From positions 1 through 26,519 of the forward strand of contig JAJRRF010000087.1 in assembly GCA_024279735.1 (NCBI GenBank): DNA of 26,519 bases, written 5' to 3'. Each line of letters begins with the position of its first letter. Position 1 is the first letter of the stretch. This DNA is from Alphaproteobacteria bacterium. GTDB lineage: Bacteria; Pseudomonadota; Alphaproteobacteria; Rhizobiales; JAJRRF01. Under the pieces are notes generated by a model that was not told where the DNA came from, searched no databases, and worked only from the letters and a program-made list of their open reading frames with translations. Of the stretch, positions 428 to 24,980 are shown one piece after another. Made by a program: the position numbers and the translations under genes.

Positions 428-2008
428 ATGCCAGAAATTCAAAAAAATCTCGATGTTTTCAAGTCTGTTATCATTAAAGAAAATGAGATTGGCCTACTGA
501 TGGAAAATGGTCAGTTTAAAAAAATATTGCAGCCTGGAAAATACACGTTCTGGAGTTTGAGGGCAGAACGCAAGGTTCATATTTTAGATACATTTTCAAC
601 AGAACTCGCAGAGTTTTGGGCTGTGATCTTGCTCAAAAAGAGGCCTGCTGAGGCTGCGAAATTGTTTGAGGTGGTTGAGACAGGGGCAGACCAAATTGCC
701 TTGCTCTATCAGGATAACAAACCAGTCATGTTACTCAAGCCCTGGCAAAAAAAATATTTCTGGAAGATGCGCCACACGATTGATGTGGAATATATTTCCA
801 TCCAGACAGGTAAGGTTCTGTCTGAAGAGTACCGTACTGTCATGGAACAAATAAGACCTGAAAGCATGGTTGTCTCCCAGACAATAGGAGCTTCCCATAT
901 TGGATTGATGTATATTGATGACCAGTTTGACAGGGTGCTGTATCCTGGTGTCTATAGCTTTTGGAAGAATGAGGGGAAAATCTCATTTGAGCGTTATGAC
1001 TGTCTTAACAGAGCCAGCAATGGATTGCTTGAAAAACAGGCCAAGGAATTATTGGCTCATGCCCCAGACGAAGCCGACAAGCTGCTAGAAGTTGTCACTA
1101 CAAAAGAAAGCCAAGTGGCTGTTGTCTCTTGGGATGAGAAGCCCTTTTTAGTATTGAAACCGTGGCAGACCAAATATTATTTCAAAAAGCTTTCTAATGT
1201 CCATGTTGACTATATTACCATTGCCACAGGTCAAGAAGTGCCCAAGGAGTATCGCGCTGTTTTGGAAAAGCTCGATACAGGCCAGTTGGTACAGTCTTTG
1301 ACAATAGCGCATTTCCACACTGGTCTGATGTTTGTCGATGGCAAACTGGTGCGGGAACTGAAGCCCGGGGCCTATAGCTTTTGGCAAAATGAGGGGCAGG
1401 TTGCCTTCCAGATCATTGATTTGCGGCCACAGCAGCTTGAGGTTACAGCCCAGGAAATTTTGACCAAGGACAAGATTTCCCTGCGTGTCACCCTGTCTGC
1501 CTTTATGACGGTGCGGGATGCCTGCAAGACAGTAGAATCCTCTGTTGACCATAACGAGCATCTTTACCGCCTGGTTCAGTTTGCTGTGCGTGAGGCTGTG
1601 GGCAACCGTAGCCTGGATGAGGTCTTGGGCAGCCGCGAAAAGGTTGACAGCCAGATCGTGAATCATGTCCGTGAACATATGGGTGATATTGGTATCAGCT
1701 TGGAGGGGCTGGGCATTAAGGACATTATCCTACCTGGTGAGATGCGTGACATGCTCAACAAGGTGGTGATGGCCGAAAAGACTGCCCAGGCCAATTTGAT
1801 CCGCCGCCGCGAGGAAACAGCAGCAACTCGGTCCTTGCTCAATACTGCCAAGTTGATGGACGGCAGCCCGACCCTGATGCGGCTGAAGGAGCTGGAAACT
1901 CTGGAAAAGCTGACCGAAAAGGTTGGCCGCATCGACCTTCACGCAGGCGACAAGGGCGGCCTGGACGCGCTACTCTCTGGGTTGCTGAAAAGTGAGAAGA
2001 GTGAGTAG
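428..2008 (+). CDS. SPFH/band-7 (stomatin/flotillin-like) domain protein with triplicated N-terminal repeat region and C-terminal coiled coil. It has no predicted TM segment.
   Basis: The C-terminal about 180 aa (LRVTLSAFMTVRD...LGIKDIILPGEMRDMLNKVVMAEKTAQANLIRRREETAA...) matches the SPFH core. The N-terminal beta-hairpin motif PGxYxFW recurs at residues about 36, 173 and 313. Confidence 0.85.
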   Translation: MPEIQKNLDVFKSVIIKENEIGLLMENGQFKKILQPGKYTFWSLRAERKVHILDTFSTELAEFWAVILLKKRPAEAAKLFEVVETGADQIALLYQDNKPVMLLKPWQKKYFWKMRHTIDVEYISIQTGKVLSEEYRTVMEQIRPESMVVSQTIGASHIGLMYIDDQFDRVLYPGVYSFWKNEGKISFERYDCLNRASNGLLEKQAKELLAHAPDEADKLLEVVTTKESQVAVVSWDEKPFLVLKPWQTKYYFKKLSNVHVDYITIATGQEVPKEYRAVLEKLDTGQLVQSLTIAHFHTGLMFVDGKLVRELKPGAYSFWQNEGQVAFQIIDLRPQQLEVTAQEILTKDKISLRVTLSAFMTVRDACKTVESSVDHNEHLYRLVQFAVREAVGNRSLDEVLGSREKVDSQIVNHVREHMGDIGISLEGLGIKDIILPGEMRDMLNKVVMAEKTAQANLIRRREETAATRSLLNTAKLMDGSPTLMRLKELETLEKLTEKVGRIDLHAGDKGGLDALLSGLLKSEKSE

Positions 2009-2017
2009 GGGCTAACC

Positions 2018-2048
2018 ACTGTCATCCCGAAGAAATGCGGGATGATAG
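2018..2048. repeat. REP-like hairpin GTCATCCCG-aagaaat-GCGGGATGA, terminator-like, directly after the SPFH stop
   Basis: Stem of 8/9 bp with a 7-nt loop. The same motif recurs at 20205-20237 and inverted at 20318-20352. Confidence 0.5.
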
Positions 2049-2081
2049 TAATGGGGGCATTAGGCTTGCTTTAAAGTTGCA

Positions 2082-2188
2082 CTAGAGCATAGTGCGAGCA
2101 AATCGAATCGACTTAACTGGTTAAAGTATGTGACCAATTAAGAATCTAGGGCAACCTCTTGACCATGTTTAAATGCAGGTTGCTCTAG
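2082..2188. repeat. MITE-like dispersed repeat, copy A (about 107 bp), with terminal inverted repeats CTAGAGCA...TGCTCTAG
   Basis: Shares GCATAGTGCGAGCAAATCG at the 5' end and GCAGGTTGCTCTAG at the 3' end with copies at 14024-14126 and 24679-24784. Confidence 0.7.
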
Positions 2189-2221
2189 ACCAGTTGGTCT
2201 AATTGTTGTATAGCTTGCCAA

Positions 2222-3151
2222 ATGCAAACAATACTCTCAATCAAGAACCTGACCAAGACTTATGGTGAGGACTTTACTGCCCTGAACGATGTATCCCTTG
2301 AGATCAGGAAGGGCGAAATCTTTGCCCTGCTTGGGCCAAACGGGGCAGGTAAGACCACCTTAATCAGCACGATTTGCGGTATTGTCAATCCAAGTGGCGG
2401 CACTGTTACGGTGGATGGCCATGACATTATCACAAACTACCGCGCTGCCCGCGCCATGATTGGTCTTGTGCCGCAAGAACTCACGACTGACAGTTTTGAA
2501 ACGGTCTGGGATACGGTCAGTTTTACACGCGGCCTGTTTGGCAAAAAGCGTGATAACGCGCTGGTCAGCAAGATTTTAAAAGACCTCTCGCTGTATGACA
2601 AGAAAGACAACAAGATCATGACGCTGTCTGGCGGCATGAAACGCCGCGTCCTGATTGCCAAGGCCCTGTCGCATGAACCAAGGATATTATTCCTGGATGA
2701 GCCGACAGCCGGGGTGGATGTCGAGCTGCGCAAGGACATGTGGGCGGTGGTGCGCGGCTTGCAGCAAAGCGGGGTGACCATCATCCTGACCACCCACTAT
2801 ATTGAGGAAGCCGAGGAAATGGCTGACCGAGTGGGCATTATCAGCAAGGGCGAGATTATCCTGGTGGAGGACAAGGCCACCCTGATGGCCAAGCTGGGCA
2901 AGAAGCATTTGACGCTGGAACTGTGTGAAAAGCTGGAGACTGTTCCAGACACCCTGAAAGGCTATGACCTGTCCCTGTCAGACGACGGTTTTTCGCTGGT
3001 TTACCAATATGATAGCACTGGCAAGACGACTGGTATTACTGGCCTGCTCGACAAGCTAAAGGGCGAAAACATCGCCTTCCGCGACCTCAGCACAGGCCAA
3101 CGTTCCCTGGAAGATATTTTTGTGGGGCTGGTGAAGGGGGGAGAGGGATGA
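2222..3151 (+). CDS. yadG: ABC transporter ATP-binding protein, ABC-2 exporter type (YadG-like)
   Basis: Walker [12 protein letters not shown], signature LSGGMKRRV, Walker [13 protein letters not shown] and H-loop TTHY are all present. The overall layout matches E. coli YadG. Confidence 0.9.
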
Positions 3152-3435: not shown

Positions 3436-3455
3436 CATAAATAAAGGCCTTTCTT

Positions 3456-3548
3456 GTCGGTCGACTGCTCTGTAGTTGACTGGAACGTTTTGACACTCAA
3501 GGTTGTTGGGCAGTAACGTTCCAGTTAAGGACAGAGCTCTTAACCGAC
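3456..3548. repeat. 93-bp compound inverted repeat (stems 6+7+10 bp: GTCGGT/ACCGAC, GCTCTGT/ACAGAGC, CTGGAACGTT/AACGTTCCAG) in the yadG-yadH intergenic region
   Basis: Complementarity read directly. Internal TTGAC motifs occur at about 3476 and 3490. Confidence 0.6.
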
Positions 3549-3794
3549 ATGTGGCGACAGGGATTTGGAGAAGCAGAATAATGCGAGGCTATGTCAATAT
3601 TCTCCAAAATTCACTATAACCCCCCATACTTTCCATCGTCATCATCGGGCTTGTCCCGCTGTTCCATGTCTTAAGTTTTGGTCTTGATACAAAGGCTGGT
3701 TATTGTGCTTTACAGTTTAAAAGATGGATAGTTGGAACAAGTCCAACTATGATGTGTGATGAGAAAATTAGGGGCAGGACGGAAAAGGCAAAAT

Positions 3795-11680: not shown

Positions 11681-11759
11681 TATAAGGTATGTCCTGATGA
11701 AAACAAGCCTAAATAATTTGGGTTTTTGTTGCAGCCATGCCGAATGGCAAGGCTTTATC

Positions 11760-11787
11760 TTGACACTTGGGAAAGTAGGCTTATAAG
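11760..11787 (+). promoter_or_regulatory. sigma70-like promoter TTGACA-16-TATAAG for the atp (F0) operon
   Basis: Near-consensus hexamers about 40 nt upstream of the atpI ATG at 11828. It lies inside the over-extended ORF-track frame. Confidence 0.55.
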
Positions 11788-11827
11788 CTTTAGCGATGTT
11801 TTCATAAGGATCGGCAGGGGATTGGTT

Positions 11828-12232
11828 ATGACAGGGCAGGGTAAAAAAGAGACTGGTCAGGACGAAAGGTCTCTTAAGGATATAGAAAGCCGTCTTGGTC
11901 AGTTGGGTGAAAAGCTGGACAAGGTGCGTGACGAAAATAGCCTGAGTGAAAATGCAACGAGGTCAATTGCGAGAAGCCATAACCAGATGGGGACAGCTTT
12001 CCGAATTACATCGGAGCTTGTGGGTCCTGTTCTGGTCAGTACCTTTATTGGGTATTGGCTGGACCAGTATTTTGCCACCAAGCCTGTGCTGATGATATTG
12101 TTCTTTGTCCTTGGGGTCGTGACTGGTTTTGTCAATGTTGTGCGCGCCGCCAAGAAAATGCAGCAGGAAACGATTGATTCAGGAGCCTATAAAGAGGCAA
12201 AGGATATGCCTTTTGATGACGATGATGATTAA
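11828..12232 (+). CDS. atpI: ATP synthase protein I (AtpI/ATPase_gene1 family), two TM helices and an acidic C-terminal tail. The start was reassigned from the ORF-track TTG at 11726.
   Basis: Directly upstream of atpB. The TM pair FRITSELVGPVLVSTFIGYWLDQYF...LMILFFVLGVVTGF fits the family. The promoter lies inside the longer frame. Confidence 0.75.
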   Translation: MTGQGKKETGQDERSLKDIESRLGQLGEKLDKVRDENSLSENATRSIARSHNQMGTAFRITSELVGPVLVSTFIGYWLDQYFATKPVLMILFFVLGVVTGFVNVVRAAKKMQQETIDSGAYKEAKDMPFDDDDD

Positions 12233-12318: not shown

Positions 12319-13098
12319 ATGGCAGCGGAAACGCAGATTGAGCAGGCAGGTGGTTCTGGGCCTAACCCAATGGCACAATTTGAGGTCAAACGTATCTTTG
12401 ACATTGACCTCATGGGGTATGATGCGTCCTTTACCAATTCTTCCCTGTTTATGATTCTGGGGGTCGTTCTTACGAGTACCTTCTTGATTTTTGCCATGCG
12501 CAAAAAGTCTATGATTCCTGGCCGGCTTCAGTCGATTGCGGAGTTAAGCTATAACTTTATCTATGATATGGTGCTGAGTGCGATTGGGCCGAAGGGTATT
12601 AAATACTTTCCTTTTGTATTTACCCTGTTTTTGTTCATCCTCGCCATGAACATGCTTGGCATGTTTACGCTGCCGCTTGGGCATTTGTCCTTTACAGTGA
12701 CCAGTCACATCATTGTCACCTTTGCCATTGCCATGGCAATCTTTCTGGGTGTCACTGTGATTGGTTTTAAAAATCATGGTTTCGGATTTTTGAAACTGTT
12801 TGTGCCGTCCGGTGTGCCTGCCTTGCTGTTGCCCCTGATTATTGTGATTGAGATCATTTCCTACTTGTCCCGGCCAATCAGCTTGTCTGTCCGCCTGTTT
12901 GCCAATATGATGGTCGGGCATACACTTCTGAAGGTGCTTGGCAGTTTTGTTGCTGCTTTGGGGGTTGCTGGCATTGGCCCTCTTTTACTTATGATTCCGT
13001 TCACGGGACTGGAAATCTTGGTTGCCTTTTTGCAGGCTTTTGTTTTTGCTGTCCTGACCTGTATTTATTTGAATGATGCTATTAACTTGCATCACTAA
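12319..13098 (+). CDS. atpB: F0F1 ATP synthase subunit a
   Basis: Conserved essential Arg region (SLSVRLFANMMVGH) and five TM helices. Confidence 0.93.
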   Translation: MAAETQIEQAGGSGPNPMAQFEVKRIFDIDLMGYDASFTNSSLFMILGVVLTSTFLIFAMRKKSMIPGRLQSIAELSYNFIYDMVLSAIGPKGIKYFPFVFTLFLFILAMNMLGMFTLPLGHLSFTVTSHIIVTFAIAMAIFLGVTVIGFKNHGFGFLKLFVPSGVPALLLPLIIVIEIISYLSRPISLSVRLFANMMVGHTLLKVLGSFVAALGVAGIGPLLLMIPFTGLEILVAFLQAFVFAVLTCIYLNDAINLHH

Positions 13099-13187
13099 AC
13101 GGATTAACCCCTGGATGCCCTGTTTTTAAATATAAAGGGTTTGCAGTGAATTGAAACTAATTTTAAAACGTCTAAATGGAGAAGAAT

Positions 13188-13412
13188 ATGGATGTTGAAG
13201 CTGCTAAAATGATTGGTGCCGGATTGGCTTCAATCGCGCTTGTCGGTGCCGGTATTGGTATTGGTAATATTTTTGGATCTTACCTTTCTGGTGCATTGCG
13301 CAATCCTTCAGCTGCAAAAGCCCAGTTTTCCAACCTTTTGCTCGGTTTTGCCCTTGCAGAAGCAACTGGGTTGTTTGGTCTGGGTGTCGCATTCCTTATC
13401 CTATATTCATAG
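13188..13412 (+). CDS. atpE: F0F1 ATP synthase subunit c (start moved to the ATG with SD GGAGAAG)
   Basis: Hairpin proteolipid GAGIGIGNIFG...ALAEATGLFGLGVAFLIL carrying the conserved carboxylate E. Confidence 0.93.
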   Translation: MDVEAAKMIGAGLASIALVGAGIGIGNIFGSYLSGALRNPSAAKAQFSNLLLGFALAEATGLFGLGVAFLILYS

Positions 13413-13541: not shown

Positions 13542-14027
13542 ATGCCACAGCTCAATCCCGAATTTTTTGCGCCCCAGTTGATCTGGCTGGCTCTGACCTT
13601 TATTGTGTTCTATTTCATAATGTCTCGTAAGATTGTGCCTCTCATTGGCAATGTCATTGAAAAGCGTGAGGAACGGATCAGTTCAGATCTTAAGAAGGCT
13701 GAAACGCTGAAGAAGGATTTGAGTGAAGCAATTGCCAGTTATGAACAGGCGATTGCGGAGGCCAGAAGCAAGGCGTATGATATTGTTCAGGCAAACCAAA
13801 AGAAGCTTTCTGCTGAAGTGGAGGCCGAACAAAAGCTTGTTGAGGATCAGATAGACCAAAAGACCAAAGATTCAGAGCAGCGGATTGCTGCTGCCAGGGA
13901 TACAGCACTGGCACAGATTAATGATATTGCGGTTGGTACGACCGAAGAAATATTACAGTCTCTGACAGGGTCAAAGCCTTCTGGAGATAAGGTTTTGGAT
14001 GCGATTTCTTCGGTATCTTCATCTTAG
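13542..14027 (+). CDS. atpF2: F0F1 ATP synthase subunit b'
   Basis: Single N-terminal TM followed by a long charged coiled coil. Its position between c and b is typical of alphaproteobacteria. Confidence 0.88.
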   Translation: MPQLNPEFFAPQLIWLALTFIVFYFIMSRKIVPLIGNVIEKREERISSDLKKAETLKKDLSEAIASYEQAIAEARSKAYDIVQANQKKLSAEVEAEQKLVEDQIDQKTKDSEQRIAAARDTALAQINDIAVGTTEEILQSLTGSKPSGDKVLDAISSVSSS

Positions 14028-14126
14028 TGCATAGTGCGAGCAAATCGTTACGATTTGCGGGTTATATGCGCCATCATAGGGGCTAGGCAAGGTCAACTGA
14101 CCGAACCTGCTTGCAGGTTGCTCTAG
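14024..14126. repeat. MITE-like dispersed repeat, copy B (about 103 bp), between atpF2 and atpF. Its 5' end overlaps the atpF2 TAG stop codon.
   Basis: Nearly identical to copy C over about 60 bp. The same TIR termini are present. Confidence 0.7.
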
Positions 14127-14198
14127 GTTTGCGGGTCTCTCATAGTTATTTTATAGTGTAGGGACGATAGTTTCTATAAAATGGTAGGAAATGTTTTC

Positions 14199-17279: not shown

Positions 17280-18110
17280 ATGGAAATAGCATCAAGAAAA
17301 CCAAAAGTATTTATAGCTTCTTCATTAGAGGGAAGAAGTATTGTTGATGCTATTCACGTTAACATAGAACATGAATGTGAAGTCACTCCTTGGTATCATA
17401 GCTTTACACCTTCTAGTAATACCTTAGATGATTTGATTATATCATCTAGTGCTTCTGATTTTGCTTTGTTTGTGTTTCAACCCGATGATCTCACACTTAT
17501 AAGGAGTAAAGCAGAGCCAATGGTTAGAGATAATGTTCTATTTGAAATGGGAATATTTATCGGGACTCTTGGTCGGGAAAGGGTGTTTCTTCTGAAGCCG
17601 TCTCATGAAACATTATGCTTGCCAACTGACTTAGCTGGTTTGATTTATTTGGGATATGAAGCAAATAGAACTGATCAAAATTTAGAAGCAGCCACTAATC
17701 CCGCCTGCTCTAAAATAAAGAAATGTATAAAAGAAAGAGGGGCTTTGAATTTTGGAAATTTTTCAAAAACCAACAAGCAAAGTGTCAATTTTCCTGAATA
17801 TGAACTTGATGAAATAGATTATATTTTCTTGCAGAAATGTTCTGCTAGCCATACTTCCCATCCTGAAGGGTTAACCTTTGAAAGTCTTTCTTTTTCTATT
17901 AATAATAGGAAGAAAGAAGACGCAATAAGAAAATCAGCTCTTAAACTTCACAGAATGAAATGTATTGATCTTAGTATAGAAGTAGAAGACTTCGATATAA
18001 ATGATCCGCCAAGACAAGAGTATTACTATACCATCACAGAAATAGGGATTGATCTATTGTTAAAACACGATTTTTCAAAAAAGACTTTTGACGATGAGAT
18101 TCCATTCTGA
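17280..18110 (+). CDS. TIR-like domain protein (COG4271/PF10137-type 'predicted nucleotide-binding protein containing TIR-like domain') fused to a C-terminal winged-helix-like domain. It is AT-rich and likely horizontally acquired.
   Basis: Motifs KVFIASS, ALFVFQPDD, RDNVLFEMGIFIGTLGRERVFLLKP and PTDLAGLIYL. The first 120 nt are about 33% GC. Confidence 0.8.
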   Translation: MEIASRKPKVFIASSLEGRSIVDAIHVNIEHECEVTPWYHSFTPSSNTLDDLIISSSASDFALFVFQPDDLTLIRSKAEPMVRDNVLFEMGIFIGTLGRERVFLLKPSHETLCLPTDLAGLIYLGYEANRTDQNLEAATNPACSKIKKCIKERGALNFGNFSKTNKQSVNFPEYELDEIDYIFLQKCSASHTSHPEGLTFESLSFSINNRKKEDAIRKSALKLHRMKCIDLSIEVEDFDINDPPRQEYYYTITEIGIDLLLKHDFSKKTFDDEIPF

Positions 18111-18187
18111 TGATGTTGGTCAGGGGCTCTGTCCTATGGGGAATCTCATTCACACAACTATTAAAAAGTGAGTACGGATTCTGTAGG

Positions 18188-18210
18188 GGGGCATCCGTGT
18201 ATGCCCCTTC
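18188..18210 (+). terminator. hairpin GGGGCAT-ccgtgt-ATGCCCC plus TTC, downstream of the TIR-like gene
   Basis: Read directly from the sequence. Confidence 0.4.
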
Positions 18211-18434
18211 TAACGTAACGGGTCTTGGGTGATGTTGGGACGGAATTTGAAGCAACCAGCTGTTTTGACAGGTTATTTTATGAGCCTTTAGCCAGCAGGG
18301 CGGATACATGGATTCGCCCCTACATTGTGTGCCTGTATCCTTATTGGTCGCATACTTTAACCAGACAAGCCGCAGGCGACTTGTCTTCATGATGCTCTAA
18401 CGCCTACAGGCAATAAAACAAGAAAGCCCCTCAA

Positions 18435-19373: not shown

Positions 19374-19452
19374 GGCAGGAAGAAAACTGCCACCCCATGC
19401 CTGACGTGATGTCAAAAATGTGGGACTAAATACAGAAGAAAGCAATAAGATC

Positions 19453-20175
19453 ATGAGTGATGATGATGGCCTGTTCCGTGAGATTGCTGAGGATGTACGC
19501 CGTGACCAGATGCAGGAAATTTGGAGAAAATATGGTGTTCTTATCCTGGGGGTTGTTGCTGCTGTCATTATTGGGGCGAGTGCCTACCAGCTCAATGGTT
19601 ATTGGTCAAAACAGGCAGCTGAAAAGGCTGCTGATCATCTTTATAAGGCTGAATCCCTGGCTGACGAGAAGAAAAAAGAGGATGCACTGAAGCTTTACAG
19701 CAAACTTGCCAAGTCAGGTCCGGCTGGCTACGCTGCCATATCCAAGTTGCGGATTGCATCACTCCAGGCTGCCAAGGGCAATAAGGAAGATGCGATAAAC
19801 CAGTTTATCAGTGTGGCCAATAATGGCAGGATTGACCCTATTTTTTCTGACTTTGCGGTTATCCAGACAGCCATGCTGACGCTTGACAAGGAACTTCCTG
19901 CCGATGTTAAGAAAAAGCTTGTTGTCATGAGTGCTGGGGCAGGGAGCTGGCGGCACAATGCCAGGGAAATACTGGCTCTGTCAGACTATAAGGCCAAGAA
20001 ATATAAGGAAGCGAGCGCGACATATGCCATGATCCTGGCAGACATCAAGTCACCAGCAAGCCTGAAGAAACGCGCAGAAATGATGGTGCGTATGATCAGT
20101 AATACATTGGCAGAACAGGAAAGCGCGGCCTCTGCCAAGACTGTGCCAGCTAAGACACCAGAAAAAAAGAAGTAG
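19453..20175 (+). CDS. membrane-anchored TPR-like protein (YfgM/UPF0070-like architecture: cytoplasmic N-terminus, one TM, periplasmic helical domain, Lys-rich tail)
   Basis: TM segment GVLILGVVAAVIIGASAYQL after about 30 N-terminal residues. The start was moved to the ATG (MSDDDGLFREI). Confidence 0.65.
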   Translation: MSDDDGLFREIAEDVRRDQMQEIWRKYGVLILGVVAAVIIGASAYQLNGYWSKQAAEKAADHLYKAESLADEKKKEDALKLYSKLAKSGPAGYAAISKLRIASLQAAKGNKEDAINQFISVANNGRIDPIFSDFAVIQTAMLTLDKELPADVKKKLVVMSAGAGSWRHNAREILALSDYKAKKYKEASATYAMILADIKSPASLKKRAEMMVRMISNTLAEQESAASAKTVPAKTPEKKK

Positions 20176-20204
20176 GCTGCACATCCTAACACCCTACCAT
20201 TGTC

Positions 20205-20352
20205 ATACCGTAGAAATGCGGTATCCATGCCGTGAAATTTGCGTTGAAATCGCAAATGTTTGTTTTGGTATTGTGAGCCGCTGGATCGTAAAAAATGTTG
20301 GTCTTTTTCATGTTGACAGTGCAGGGCATGGATACCGCGTCGTAGCGCGGCA
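20205..20352. repeat. about 150-bp composite element: two inverted copies of the hairpin repeat (20205-20237 and 20318-20352) flanking about 80 bp that contains the palindrome ATTTGCGttgaaatCGCAAAT
   Basis: The reverse complement of the right copy aligns with the left copy: TGTCAT(a/g)CCG...GCGGTATCCATGCC. Confidence 0.6.
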
Positions 20353-24678: not shown

Positions 24679-24784
24679 CCTAGTGCATAGTGCGAGCAAA
24701 TCGTTACGATTTGCGGGTTAAGATATGCGCCATATAAGGGCTAGAGCAAGGTCGGATGACCGCAATTGCTTGCAATTTGCTCTA
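24679..24784. repeat. MITE-like dispersed repeat, copy C (about 106 bp)
   Basis: CTAGTGCATAGTGCGAGCAAATCGTTACGATTTGCGGG...TTTGCTCTAG. Nearly identical to copy B. Confidence 0.7.
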
Positions 24785-24980
24785 GACCTCCACGAACATT
24801 TGATTTTCCTGAATTATCGACAACAAATCAGATAGAATTAAGGCCATTCAGCGCGACGAATCGTAGCGTGGAAAACAGCAATAATACGCAAGTCTTTATC
24901 ATCTCATGTATTTTTCAGGTTTTACTTCTTGTCTGGACGCTAACTAGCCGATTATACTGGAAAGATAAAGGGAGAAGATT

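Follow-up and report, generated by a model that had tools for sequence, protein, structure and literature searches.

The repeat at the junction of atpF2 and atpF

The window, by which we mean the whole 26,519-nt stretch of DNA that was analyzed, contains the F0 operon of ATP synthase in the order atpI-atpB-atpE-atpF2-atpF, which is of the alphaproteobacterial type and is the same in relatives. The positions of the first three genes were taken from the list of open reading frames. The genes of the b′ and b subunits were identified by their homologs, which carry the Pfam ATP-synt_B domain and, in the case of atpF2, bear the source name "F0F1 ATP synthase subunit B′". The start codon of atpF was set at ATG 14199 by alignment to relatives of 170–173 aa. 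No exact protein match is on record for the b′, b, and a subunits of the window. Between atpF2 and atpF lies a repeat element, here called copy B, which is followed by the remainder of the native spacer:

11726–12232: atpI
12319–13098: atpB
13176–13412: atpE
13542–14027, plus strand: atpF2, ATP synthase F0 subunit b′, 161 aa, stop codon TAG at 14025–14027
14024–14126, plus strand: copy B of the repeat, 103 nt, at the atpF2–atpF junction
14127–14198, plus strand: native spacer remainder, 72 nt, carrying the Shine-Dalgarno region of atpF (AGGA), aligned with the relatives L095, L001, L003, and L004
14199–14711, plus strand: atpF, ATP synthase F0 subunit b, 170 aa

The string cTTAGTGCA at 14023–14031 contains the TAG stop codon of atpF2, which therefore lies within the boundaries of copy B. 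An assembly artifact as the source of this arrangement was ruled out, because the genes flanking copy B are syntenic with those of five relatives. As copy B is located inside the atpI-B-E-F2-F operon, it must be tolerated in the mRNA, a point that was correctly made in the sequence-only reading of this DNA.

Copies of the repeat in the window

Copies of the repeat were detected by a repeat search of the window, MAFFT alignment, and an nhmmer profile built from copies A, B, and C, while their neighboring genes were named by Pfam. The nhmmer hit to copy B (E = 4.5e-29) starts at 14024/5. The other copies are as follows:

2082–2188, plus strand: copy A, 107 nt, between an SPFH-domain gene and an ABC-transporter ATPase gene (nhmmer E = 7.7e-27)
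about 18329–18400, minus strand: copy D, a partial mosaic, between a TIR-domain gene and panB, upstream of panB (nhmmer E = 2e-4)
24680–24785, plus strand: copy C, 106 nt, between divergent cytochrome c and dienelactone-hydrolase genes (nhmmer E = 3.2e-31)

The data showed that three full copies and one partial copy are present within 26.5 kb, all four of them intergenic and in unrelated gene contexts. Copies B and C show 100% identity over 40 nt at the start and 75% over the remainder, while the sequence common to copies A and B is limited to 24 nt at the start (CTAGAGCATAGTGCGAGCAAATCG) and 15 nt at the end (TGCAGGTTGCTCTAG), with a different interior. The partial copy D, which was first seen as an inverted repeat, has TTAGAGCAT as its 5′ end and the same interior module as copy A. 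The recurrence of the copy A interior in copy D indicates that the repeat family is mosaic. Stop codons are present in all three forward frames of copies A, B, and C, which shows that they are non-coding. Their terminal inverted repeats are only 8–9 bp long and match at 8 of 9 positions in copy A and at 7 of 8 in copies B and C; beyond these terminal nucleotides the two ends are dissimilar. The tetranucleotide CTAG, which is found at the termini of the elements, is much rarer in the window than expected (21 occurrences versus 102), and eight of the 21 are inside repeat elements. Neither a transposase, nor an autonomous insertion sequence with matching ends (TA-GAGCATAGTGCG), nor a gene for a Y1 transposase or RAYT was found within the window. 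The nhmmer hits, the multiple copies, and the short terminal inverted repeats, together with the empty sites in relatives described below, uphold the proposal that 14024–14126 is a copy of a dispersed, short, non-coding, MITE-like repeat.

Predicted fold of the repeat

The RNA fold prediction showed that copies A, B, and C each form two independent arms joined by a linker. The predicted energies of the plus-strand RNA were −30.8 kcal/mol for copy A, −37.4 kcal/mol for copy B, and −39.9 kcal/mol for copy C, with z-scores from −2.1 to −3.7 (B, z = −2.1; C, z = −3.7). In copy B the predicted arms are located as follows:

14027–14071, plus strand: left hairpin arm, 16 base pairs including the stem GCAAATC/GATTTGC, all pairs kept in copy C
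14083–14126, plus strand: right arm, a CTAG-bounded stem around two small hairpins, GGTC..GACC and ACCTG..CAGGT

The right arm is bounded by CTAG at both ends, as CTAG(A)GCAA...TTGCTCTAG. When copies B and C were compared, all 25 predicted base pairs of the four helices were kept and none was broken. At two base pairs both nucleotides had changed (C-G to A-U and C-G to U-A), and the other differences were located in loops, in linkers, or were indels. The compensatory score of this pair was also reached by 118 of 500 shuffles and, as it comes from two sequences only, it has no statistical weight. Such upkeep of hairpins by compensatory changes is usual for palindromic mobile repeats, and does not require a function of the RNA.

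The atpF2–atpF junction in relatives and the end of the b′ subunit

Protein searches and exact look-ups yielded a set of relatives, whose atpF2–atpF junctions were compared with that of the window:

L004/L087 (GCA_054001895.1): element absent; b′ of 161 aa, ...SSVSSS-TAA; spacer 30 nt
L088 (Logan SRR32234004): element absent; b′ of 161 aa, ...SSVSSS-TAA; spacer 30 nt
L003 (ENA): element absent; b′ of 161 aa, ...SSVSTS-TAA; spacer 33 nt
L095: element absent; b′ ...SSMSSSSS-TGA, two serines longer; spacer 69 nt
L001 (GCA_054001935.1): element absent; b′ ...SSVS-TAG, two residues shorter; spacer 165 nt, unrelated to the element

The closest relative found was L095, from a hydrothermal-vent metagenome, whose AtpF is 89% identical to that of the window, and in which the 3′ end of atpF2 aligns closely with that of the window. 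The site that is filled by copy B in the window is empty at the orthologous junction of four lineages (L003, L004/L087, L088, and L095). In three of these four the b′ protein is 161 aa long, ends with SSVS(S/T)S, and stops at the same codon position as in the window, where b′ also has 161 aa, the commonest length in the clade, and ends with ...SSVSSS. Parsimony from the lineages more distant than L095 suggests that 161 aa was the ancestral length of b′. The serine-rich tail of b′ varies by up to two residues in either direction among lineages free of the element (L095, +2; L001, −2), and the fact that it is L095, the closest relative, which is two serines longer and ends with TGA counts against an ancestral b′ of 161 aa.

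It had been proposed from the sequence alone that the repeat provided the stop codon of atpF2, and that b′ might end differently in relatives without it. The TAG at 14025–14027 in copy B is indeed the stop codon of atpF2; what did not hold is that it is a new stop or that the b′ end is altered, because relatives without the element stop at the same codon. The comparison of the junctions went largely against the proposal, since L004/L087, L088, and L003, which do not have the repeat, encode a b′ of 161 aa with the stop at the same position. Judging from these sequences, the end of the b′ protein was not reshaped by copy B.

The spacer between atpF2 and atpF

The view that the element occupies the whole spacer was wrong, because 72 nt, including the Shine-Dalgarno sequence of atpF itself, separate copy B from ATG 14199. 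Within this segment (14127–14198) a conserved ribosome-binding region, GTAGGAAATGTT(A/T)TC-ATG, lies between copy B and atpF. The spacer of L095, which has 69 nt and no element, aligns in its 3′ half with the 72 nt of the window. The native 69-nt spacer of L095 indicates that the sub-lineage had a spacer of about 70 nt beforehand, to which copy B added about 100 nt, and the atpF2–atpF spacer of the window is now 171 nt in total. In 68 other species of Hyphomicrobiales, for which start codons were assigned approximately, the median atpF2–atpF distance was about 7 nt; the values lay between −29 and +33 nt, except for one of 80 nt. In this clade the coupling of atpF2 and atpF is relaxed: the spacer has widened to 30–33 nt, further to about 70 nt, and has reached 171 nt in the window. 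The 165-nt spacer of L001 was also considered as a decayed copy of the element, and was rejected because its local alignment was no better than those of shuffles (p = 0.28–0.9).

Possible function of copy B in the operon RNA

The stable fold and the position of copy B raise the question of whether it is an RNA element selected for a role inside the operon, in which it would set the b′/b ratio by determining processing or stability or by uncoupling translation. The two stable arms predicted in plus-strand RNA of copies B and C, and the stems kept through compensatory changes, are consistent with such a role. A terminating ribosome would melt the left arm, since this arm begins with the last base of the stop codon, a situation comparable to that of ERIC in Yersinia. 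Also, the 171-nt spacer is a real change of architecture when set against the median of about 7 nt in 68 species. On the other hand, none of the relatives examined, L095 among them, has the element at the atpF2–atpF junction, and the same element is found at unrelated places, including a divergent promoter region. A spacer of about 70 nt, in which atpF had a Shine-Dalgarno sequence of its own, predates the insertion, and the conservation of the stems is usual in mobile repeats and does not call for an RNA function, at a score that many shuffles reach. In F-type ATPases with b and b′ subunits the two proteins form a 1:1 heterodimer. A device that skews their ratio is, hence, unexpected. For these reasons we consider a selected RNA element at this site very unlikely.

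The scans for regulatory signals gave a similar picture. On the plus strand of 14024–14198, consensus scans detected neither terminator-like nor promoter-like sites, and the right arm of copy B is followed by GGTTTGCGGG rather than by the U-tract of an intrinsic terminator or attenuator. None of the Rfam 15 covariance models matched the element at gathering thresholds, and it remained unmatched at E ≤ 5, at which the only hit was to a model of an unrelated lncRNA at another place in the window. A scan for tRNA or tmRNA was also negative for the element. The suggestion that copy B affects the b′/b ratio is not borne out by these data, given the lack of terminator-like or promoter-like sites on the plus strand, the unrelated contexts of the copies, and the absence of the element in all relatives examined. 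The decay of mRNA is influenced by ERIC elements, through RNase E, and by Correia elements, through RNase III (PMC10969869, PMC2229807), and by analogy an effect of copy B on the processing or decay of the mRNA is conceivable.

Insertion site and origin of the stop codon

To describe the insertion site the flanks of the three full copies were compared:

copy A: gcaC-TA-[GAGCA...TGCTC]-TA-Gacc
copy B: atcT-TA-[GTGCA...TGCTC]-TA-Ggtt
copy C: accC-TA-[GTGCA...TGCTC]-TA-Gacc

The junction pattern common to all three is Y-TA-[G...C]-TA-R, so that in these copies, which are only three, TA (or TAG) is found on both sides and overlaps the conserved CTAG termini. If TA was duplicated, the targets would be CTAG for copy A, TTAG for copy B, and CTAG for copy C, that is YTAG. 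In copy B the duplicated target would consist of TA 14025–14026 and TA 14125–14126, and the element proper, from G to C, would span 14027–14124. A duplication that includes TA is favored by parsimony when the position of the stop codon in relatives is taken into account. Removal of 14024–14126 without a duplication was rejected, as it leads to an ancestral b′ five residues longer (...SSSFAGLS), a form which is present in no relative. A member of the IS5 family from Hyphomicrobiales, IS711 of Brucella, is reported to duplicate TA within a YTAR target (PMC2266754, PMC3163539), and a TA target is also used by IS630-type elements and their MITEs, for example RUP (PMC2229807).

These data suggest that copy B is probably a MITE-like repeat whose insertion was tolerated, and which entered the TA of a TAG stop codon that atpF2 already had. 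Its family would comprise intergenic repeats of the MITE type, non-autonomous and each about 100 nt long, that carry short inverted repeats at the termini and two independent hairpin arms, and for which a transposase of the IS5/IS427 or IS630 type would be supplied in trans. In the sequence before the insertion, ...tca tct TAG gtt..., the stop codon would already have been present. Copy B would then have entered the TA of the TTAG target, with duplication of TA. The left TA and the first G of the element would re-form TAG at 14025–14027, while the original G would now be at 14127; since the element begins with G, the stop codon would be rebuilt at the same position. In this way b′ would have kept its 161 aa, and atpF its own 72-nt leader and ribosome-binding site. 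Because atpF retains this leader and ribosome-binding site, the operon can still work. Copy B would be carried in the polycistronic mRNA as a structured, non-terminating, and presumably neutral passenger. That one copy in four coincides with a stop codon is unremarkable, since three of the 62 YTAG sites of the window outside the elements are stop codons, and 10 of its 27 genes end with TAG.

An alternative is that the same mobile repeat was moved as single-stranded DNA by a Y1/HUH transposase, either as an IS200/IS605-derived palindrome-associated element or as a REP/RAYT element, and was inserted 3′ of YTAG without duplication. The whole TAG stop codon would then be host sequence, and the element would start at 14028. 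The same pre-insertion sequence, ...atcTTAGgtt..., follows from this alternative, which is equally compatible with the empty sites. It would also agree with the conserved YTAG at the left flank and the similar CTAG at the right end, with the two independent subterminal hairpins and linker in place of one long end-to-end stem, and with the ends being largely dissimilar beyond 8–9 nt. What argues against it is the terminal inverted repeat of 8–9 nt (CTAGAGCA/TGCTCTAG), which is missing from the ends of IS200/IS605-type elements, and the lack of a Y1 transposase or RAYT gene in the window. Additionally, REPs typically carry GTAG, not CTAG, which counts against a REP/RAYT origin. Hence, we regard mobilization by a Y1/HUH transposase as rather unlikely. 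The shortness of the terminal inverted repeat, with the rest of the ends dissimilar, also counts against the duplication of TA by a DDE transposase, and fits a Y1/HUH enzyme too.

Search for further members of the family

To look for members of the family outside the window, about 485 kb of sequence from related loci was subjected to motif scans. Only one element with some likeness to the repeat was found, located at 567–709 of contig CBDCYD010000016.1, upstream of atpI, in a Hyphomicrobiaceae metagenome-assembled genome (L042). This 143-nt element is delimited by CTAG on either side and has a pair of strong hairpin arms (z = −6.6). With copy A it shares the terminal 17 nt of the 3′ end (AATGCAGGTTGCTCTAG), a match that could be due to chance (E of about 0.002 within the loci searched), and its 5′ end, CTAGATCATCGTG, resembles TTAGAGCATCATG of copy D. 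It differs from the copies of the window in being 40 nt longer, in having an unrelated interior, and in belonging to a GC-rich genome, and the b′ proteins of L042 and the window are only 42% identical. The L042 element is probably a distant relative of the repeat. Two other candidates from the same scans, L009 and L039, were rejected as coding sequence or chance matches.

In searches of larger collections, the 19-mer from the 5′ end of the repeat (GCATAGTGCGAGCAAATCG) had no exact match in 185,579 species genomes, in which the family in this form is not represented. Neither copy A nor copy C had a blastn match among 72,556 plasmids. The same 19-mer had one match in the JGI metagenomes (L006; 19–20 nt), which lies 6 nt within the right-hand inverted repeat of what looks like an unclassified insertion sequence (1987–3059) with a disrupted reading frame on a GC-rich contig. 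This was rejected as the cognate insertion sequence and is probably a chance match, because the similarity ends after 20 nt, the left end is dissimilar, and one to a few chance matches are expected. The four exact matches of the 3′-terminal 16-mer to viral contigs in IMG/VR were all located in ordinary coding sequence. One could consider that the repeat belongs to an undescribed two-hairpin group spread across Hyphomicrobiales, which would home to YTAG sites including TAG stop codons, and in which copy B might uncouple b′ from b or create a processing site. The likeness of the L042 element would be in accord with such a group, which we nonetheless consider very unlikely.

Comparison with known repeat families

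Copies A, B, and C have the features of MITEs, as they are 103–107 nt long (below about 300 bp), non-coding, and multi-copy, with terminal inverted repeats and with filled and empty sites. They resemble RUP of Streptococcus pneumoniae and Correia elements (CREE) of Neisseria in being intergenic, non-coding repeats of about 100 nt in multiple copies, with TA termini and terminal inverted repeats. RUP is mobilized by IS630-Spn1, and in both RUP and Correia elements all frames are interrupted by stop codons, and transcription takes place together with the neighboring genes (PMC2229807, PMC10969869). In contrast to Correia elements, in which the terminal inverted repeats are about 26 bp long, those of the repeat described here have 8–9 bp. 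The fold is also different than that of RUP and Correia elements, because it consists of two separate arms rather than one end-to-end stem, and no sequence similarity to these elements was detectable with Rfam or among the plasmids.

The repeat is also similar to elements of alphaproteobacteria, with which it was compared by description only. Bru-RS1 and Bru-RS2 of Brucella, which belongs to the same order, have 103–106 bp and are likewise palindromic and intergenic; the Bru-RS elements have been associated with insertion at YTAR/TA by IS711 (PMC10800456, PMC3163539). The CIR1–4 elements of Caulobacter and other alphaproteobacteria, of about 110 bp, have two long inverted repeats that form two arms joined by a linker (PMC2229807), which is the arrangement predicted for copies A, B, and C. 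The GANTC methylation motif that defines CIR is missing in copies B, C, and D, unlike in copy A, which has two. By this analogy, it is the alphaproteobacterial CIR and Bru-RS1/2 elements that the repeat most resembles in size and two-arm architecture.

The location of copy B between co-transcribed genes of an unbroken operon is similar to that of Chunjie in the pst operon of Geobacter, MIRU in polycistrons of Mycobacterium tuberculosis, and ERIC in Yersinia, although these organisms and sequences are unrelated to those studied here. Intra-operon repeats including Chunjie, Correia, and ERIC elements have been reviewed (PMC10969869), and the ends of MIRU overlap the termini of neighboring genes in a polycistron (PMC3184786). 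Unlike MIRU, which are tandem units that preserve translational coupling, copy B is at a junction where the coupling is lost, and atpF uses its own ribosome-binding site.

Implications

Taken together, copy B is probably an ordinary tolerated insertion and not a new regulatory device. The finding is of little importance beyond annotation, where it shows that a small repeat can sit on the stop codon of a gene in an essential operon with the protein unaltered. For gene callers and readers of raw sequence it is a caution that an element targeting TA/YTAG is expected to leave behind a stop codon that it seems to provide, which is not evidence of gene remodeling. For the organism, it shows that an uncultured lineage of Hyphomicrobiales from hydrothermal vents carries dense families of small palindromic repeats. 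As atpF2 and atpF usually lie close together (about 7 nt apart in 68 related species) but have become loosely spaced in this clade, the locus might serve as a natural test of the translational coupling of b′ and b.

Small repeats of the window and the genes beside them

Besides the main repeat family, the window contains two further families of small repeats and a direct repeat within a coding sequence, and a repeat-rich region lies next to a TIR-domain gene.

Features of the window
2015-2043 and 20196-20224: second small repeat family, found by repeat search; 29-nt hairpin, ACCAYTGTCATMCCG-WAGAAAT-GCGGKAT
3455-3549 and 18081-18162: third family; palindromic intergenic repeats
880-976 and 1300-1396: internal direct repeat of 97 nt, 70% identity, inside the SPFH/Band-7 gene 428-2008
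17280-18110: TIR-domain gene, 276 aa; CAP12/Pycsar-effector-type TIR domain (Pfam PF10137, E = 2e-27)

The two 29-nt hairpins differ by a compensatory change, with the stem CATCCCG/CGGGATG in one copy and CATACCG/CGGTATG in the other. Both follow + strand genes (428-2008 and 19420-20175) at 7-21 nt from the stop codon, which is TAG in each case. The first of these genes also contains the 97-nt direct repeat, which indicates a putative tandem domain duplication within the SPFH/Band-7 protein. In the third family, the repeat at 3455-3549 has arms of 35 nt that are 80% complementary, and a 23-nt core, AGGACAGAGCYCYTRACCRACAT, is common to both loci. Because its second copy adjoins the partial copy D of the main family, the intergenic region 18081-18400 is a repeat patchwork. 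This repeat-rich region directly follows the TIR-domain gene, whose domain type suggests that the product may be an anti-phage defence protein. The synteny between the window and L001, the atp locus of a relative (GCA_054001935.1), is lost just past leuC, upstream of the TIR-domain gene.

The tetranucleotide CTAG is about fivefold depleted across the whole window (21 sites observed versus 102 expected from base composition), and 8 of the 21 sites are inside copies of the main repeat; in relatives the depletion is weaker. Copy B carries the 9-mer TTTGCGGGT in its left arm (14053-14061). This 9-mer occurs again at 14129-14137, which is 3 nt past the end of the element, and at both positions it is directly followed by TCATAG. 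The second occurrence could be due to chance, or alternatively, it could be the leftover of an older truncated copy.

The atpF2-atpF junction in relatives

The spacer between atpF2 and atpF is also unusually long in L001 (8755-8922), where it reaches 165 nt. This spacer is unrelated to the element of the window, and no repeat of its filler was found within the 18.7 kb of L001 examined. The junction seems to be expansion-prone in this clade. The Ser-rich C-terminal tail of b′ also differs in length among close lineages, as seen when the closest relative (L095, 181-213) is compared with the window (13995-14027), and in L001 the protein is two residues shorter, ending in ...SSVS-TAG.

C-terminal tails of b′
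SSVS: L001
SSVSSS: window and two relative lineages
SSVSTS: L003, a further relative
SSMSSSSS: L095

This variation in tail length suggests that the 3′ end of atpF2 could be slippage-prone in its serine codons.

Repeats in other loci

Repeats were also present in loci outside the window.

Features of other loci
L006 (soil metagenome contig Ga0065705_10108547), 1987-3059: apparent insertion sequence; reading frame interrupted by stop codons
L042 (Hyphomicrobiaceae MAG, CBDCYD010000016.1), 567-709: CTAG-bounded element of 143 nt, about 150 nt upstream of a putative atpI
L001, 3775-3915, 15234-15345, 16066-16131 and 17124-17167: intergenic repeats of a family different from those of the window

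The apparent insertion sequence has 22-nt inverted repeats (TAGACATTATCGG...) at its ends and TA flanks, and its termini, like those of the window repeat, are of the TA-GA... type. Located 6 nt inside the right end of this insertion sequence are 20 nt that exactly match the conserved 5′ block of the window repeat, probably by chance. The predicted fold of the L042 element, at -66.5 kcal/mol (z = -6.6), has two strong hairpin arms. The final 17 nt of this element are those of copy A, and its initial 13 nt are similar to copy D. The repeat units of L001 are 70 nt long and about 81% identical, with the motifs CTAGTATAAGAGCC...TTAGTATTA in both orientations. The fact that L001 has an intergenic repeat family of its own indicates that dense small repeats are a trait of the whole clade.
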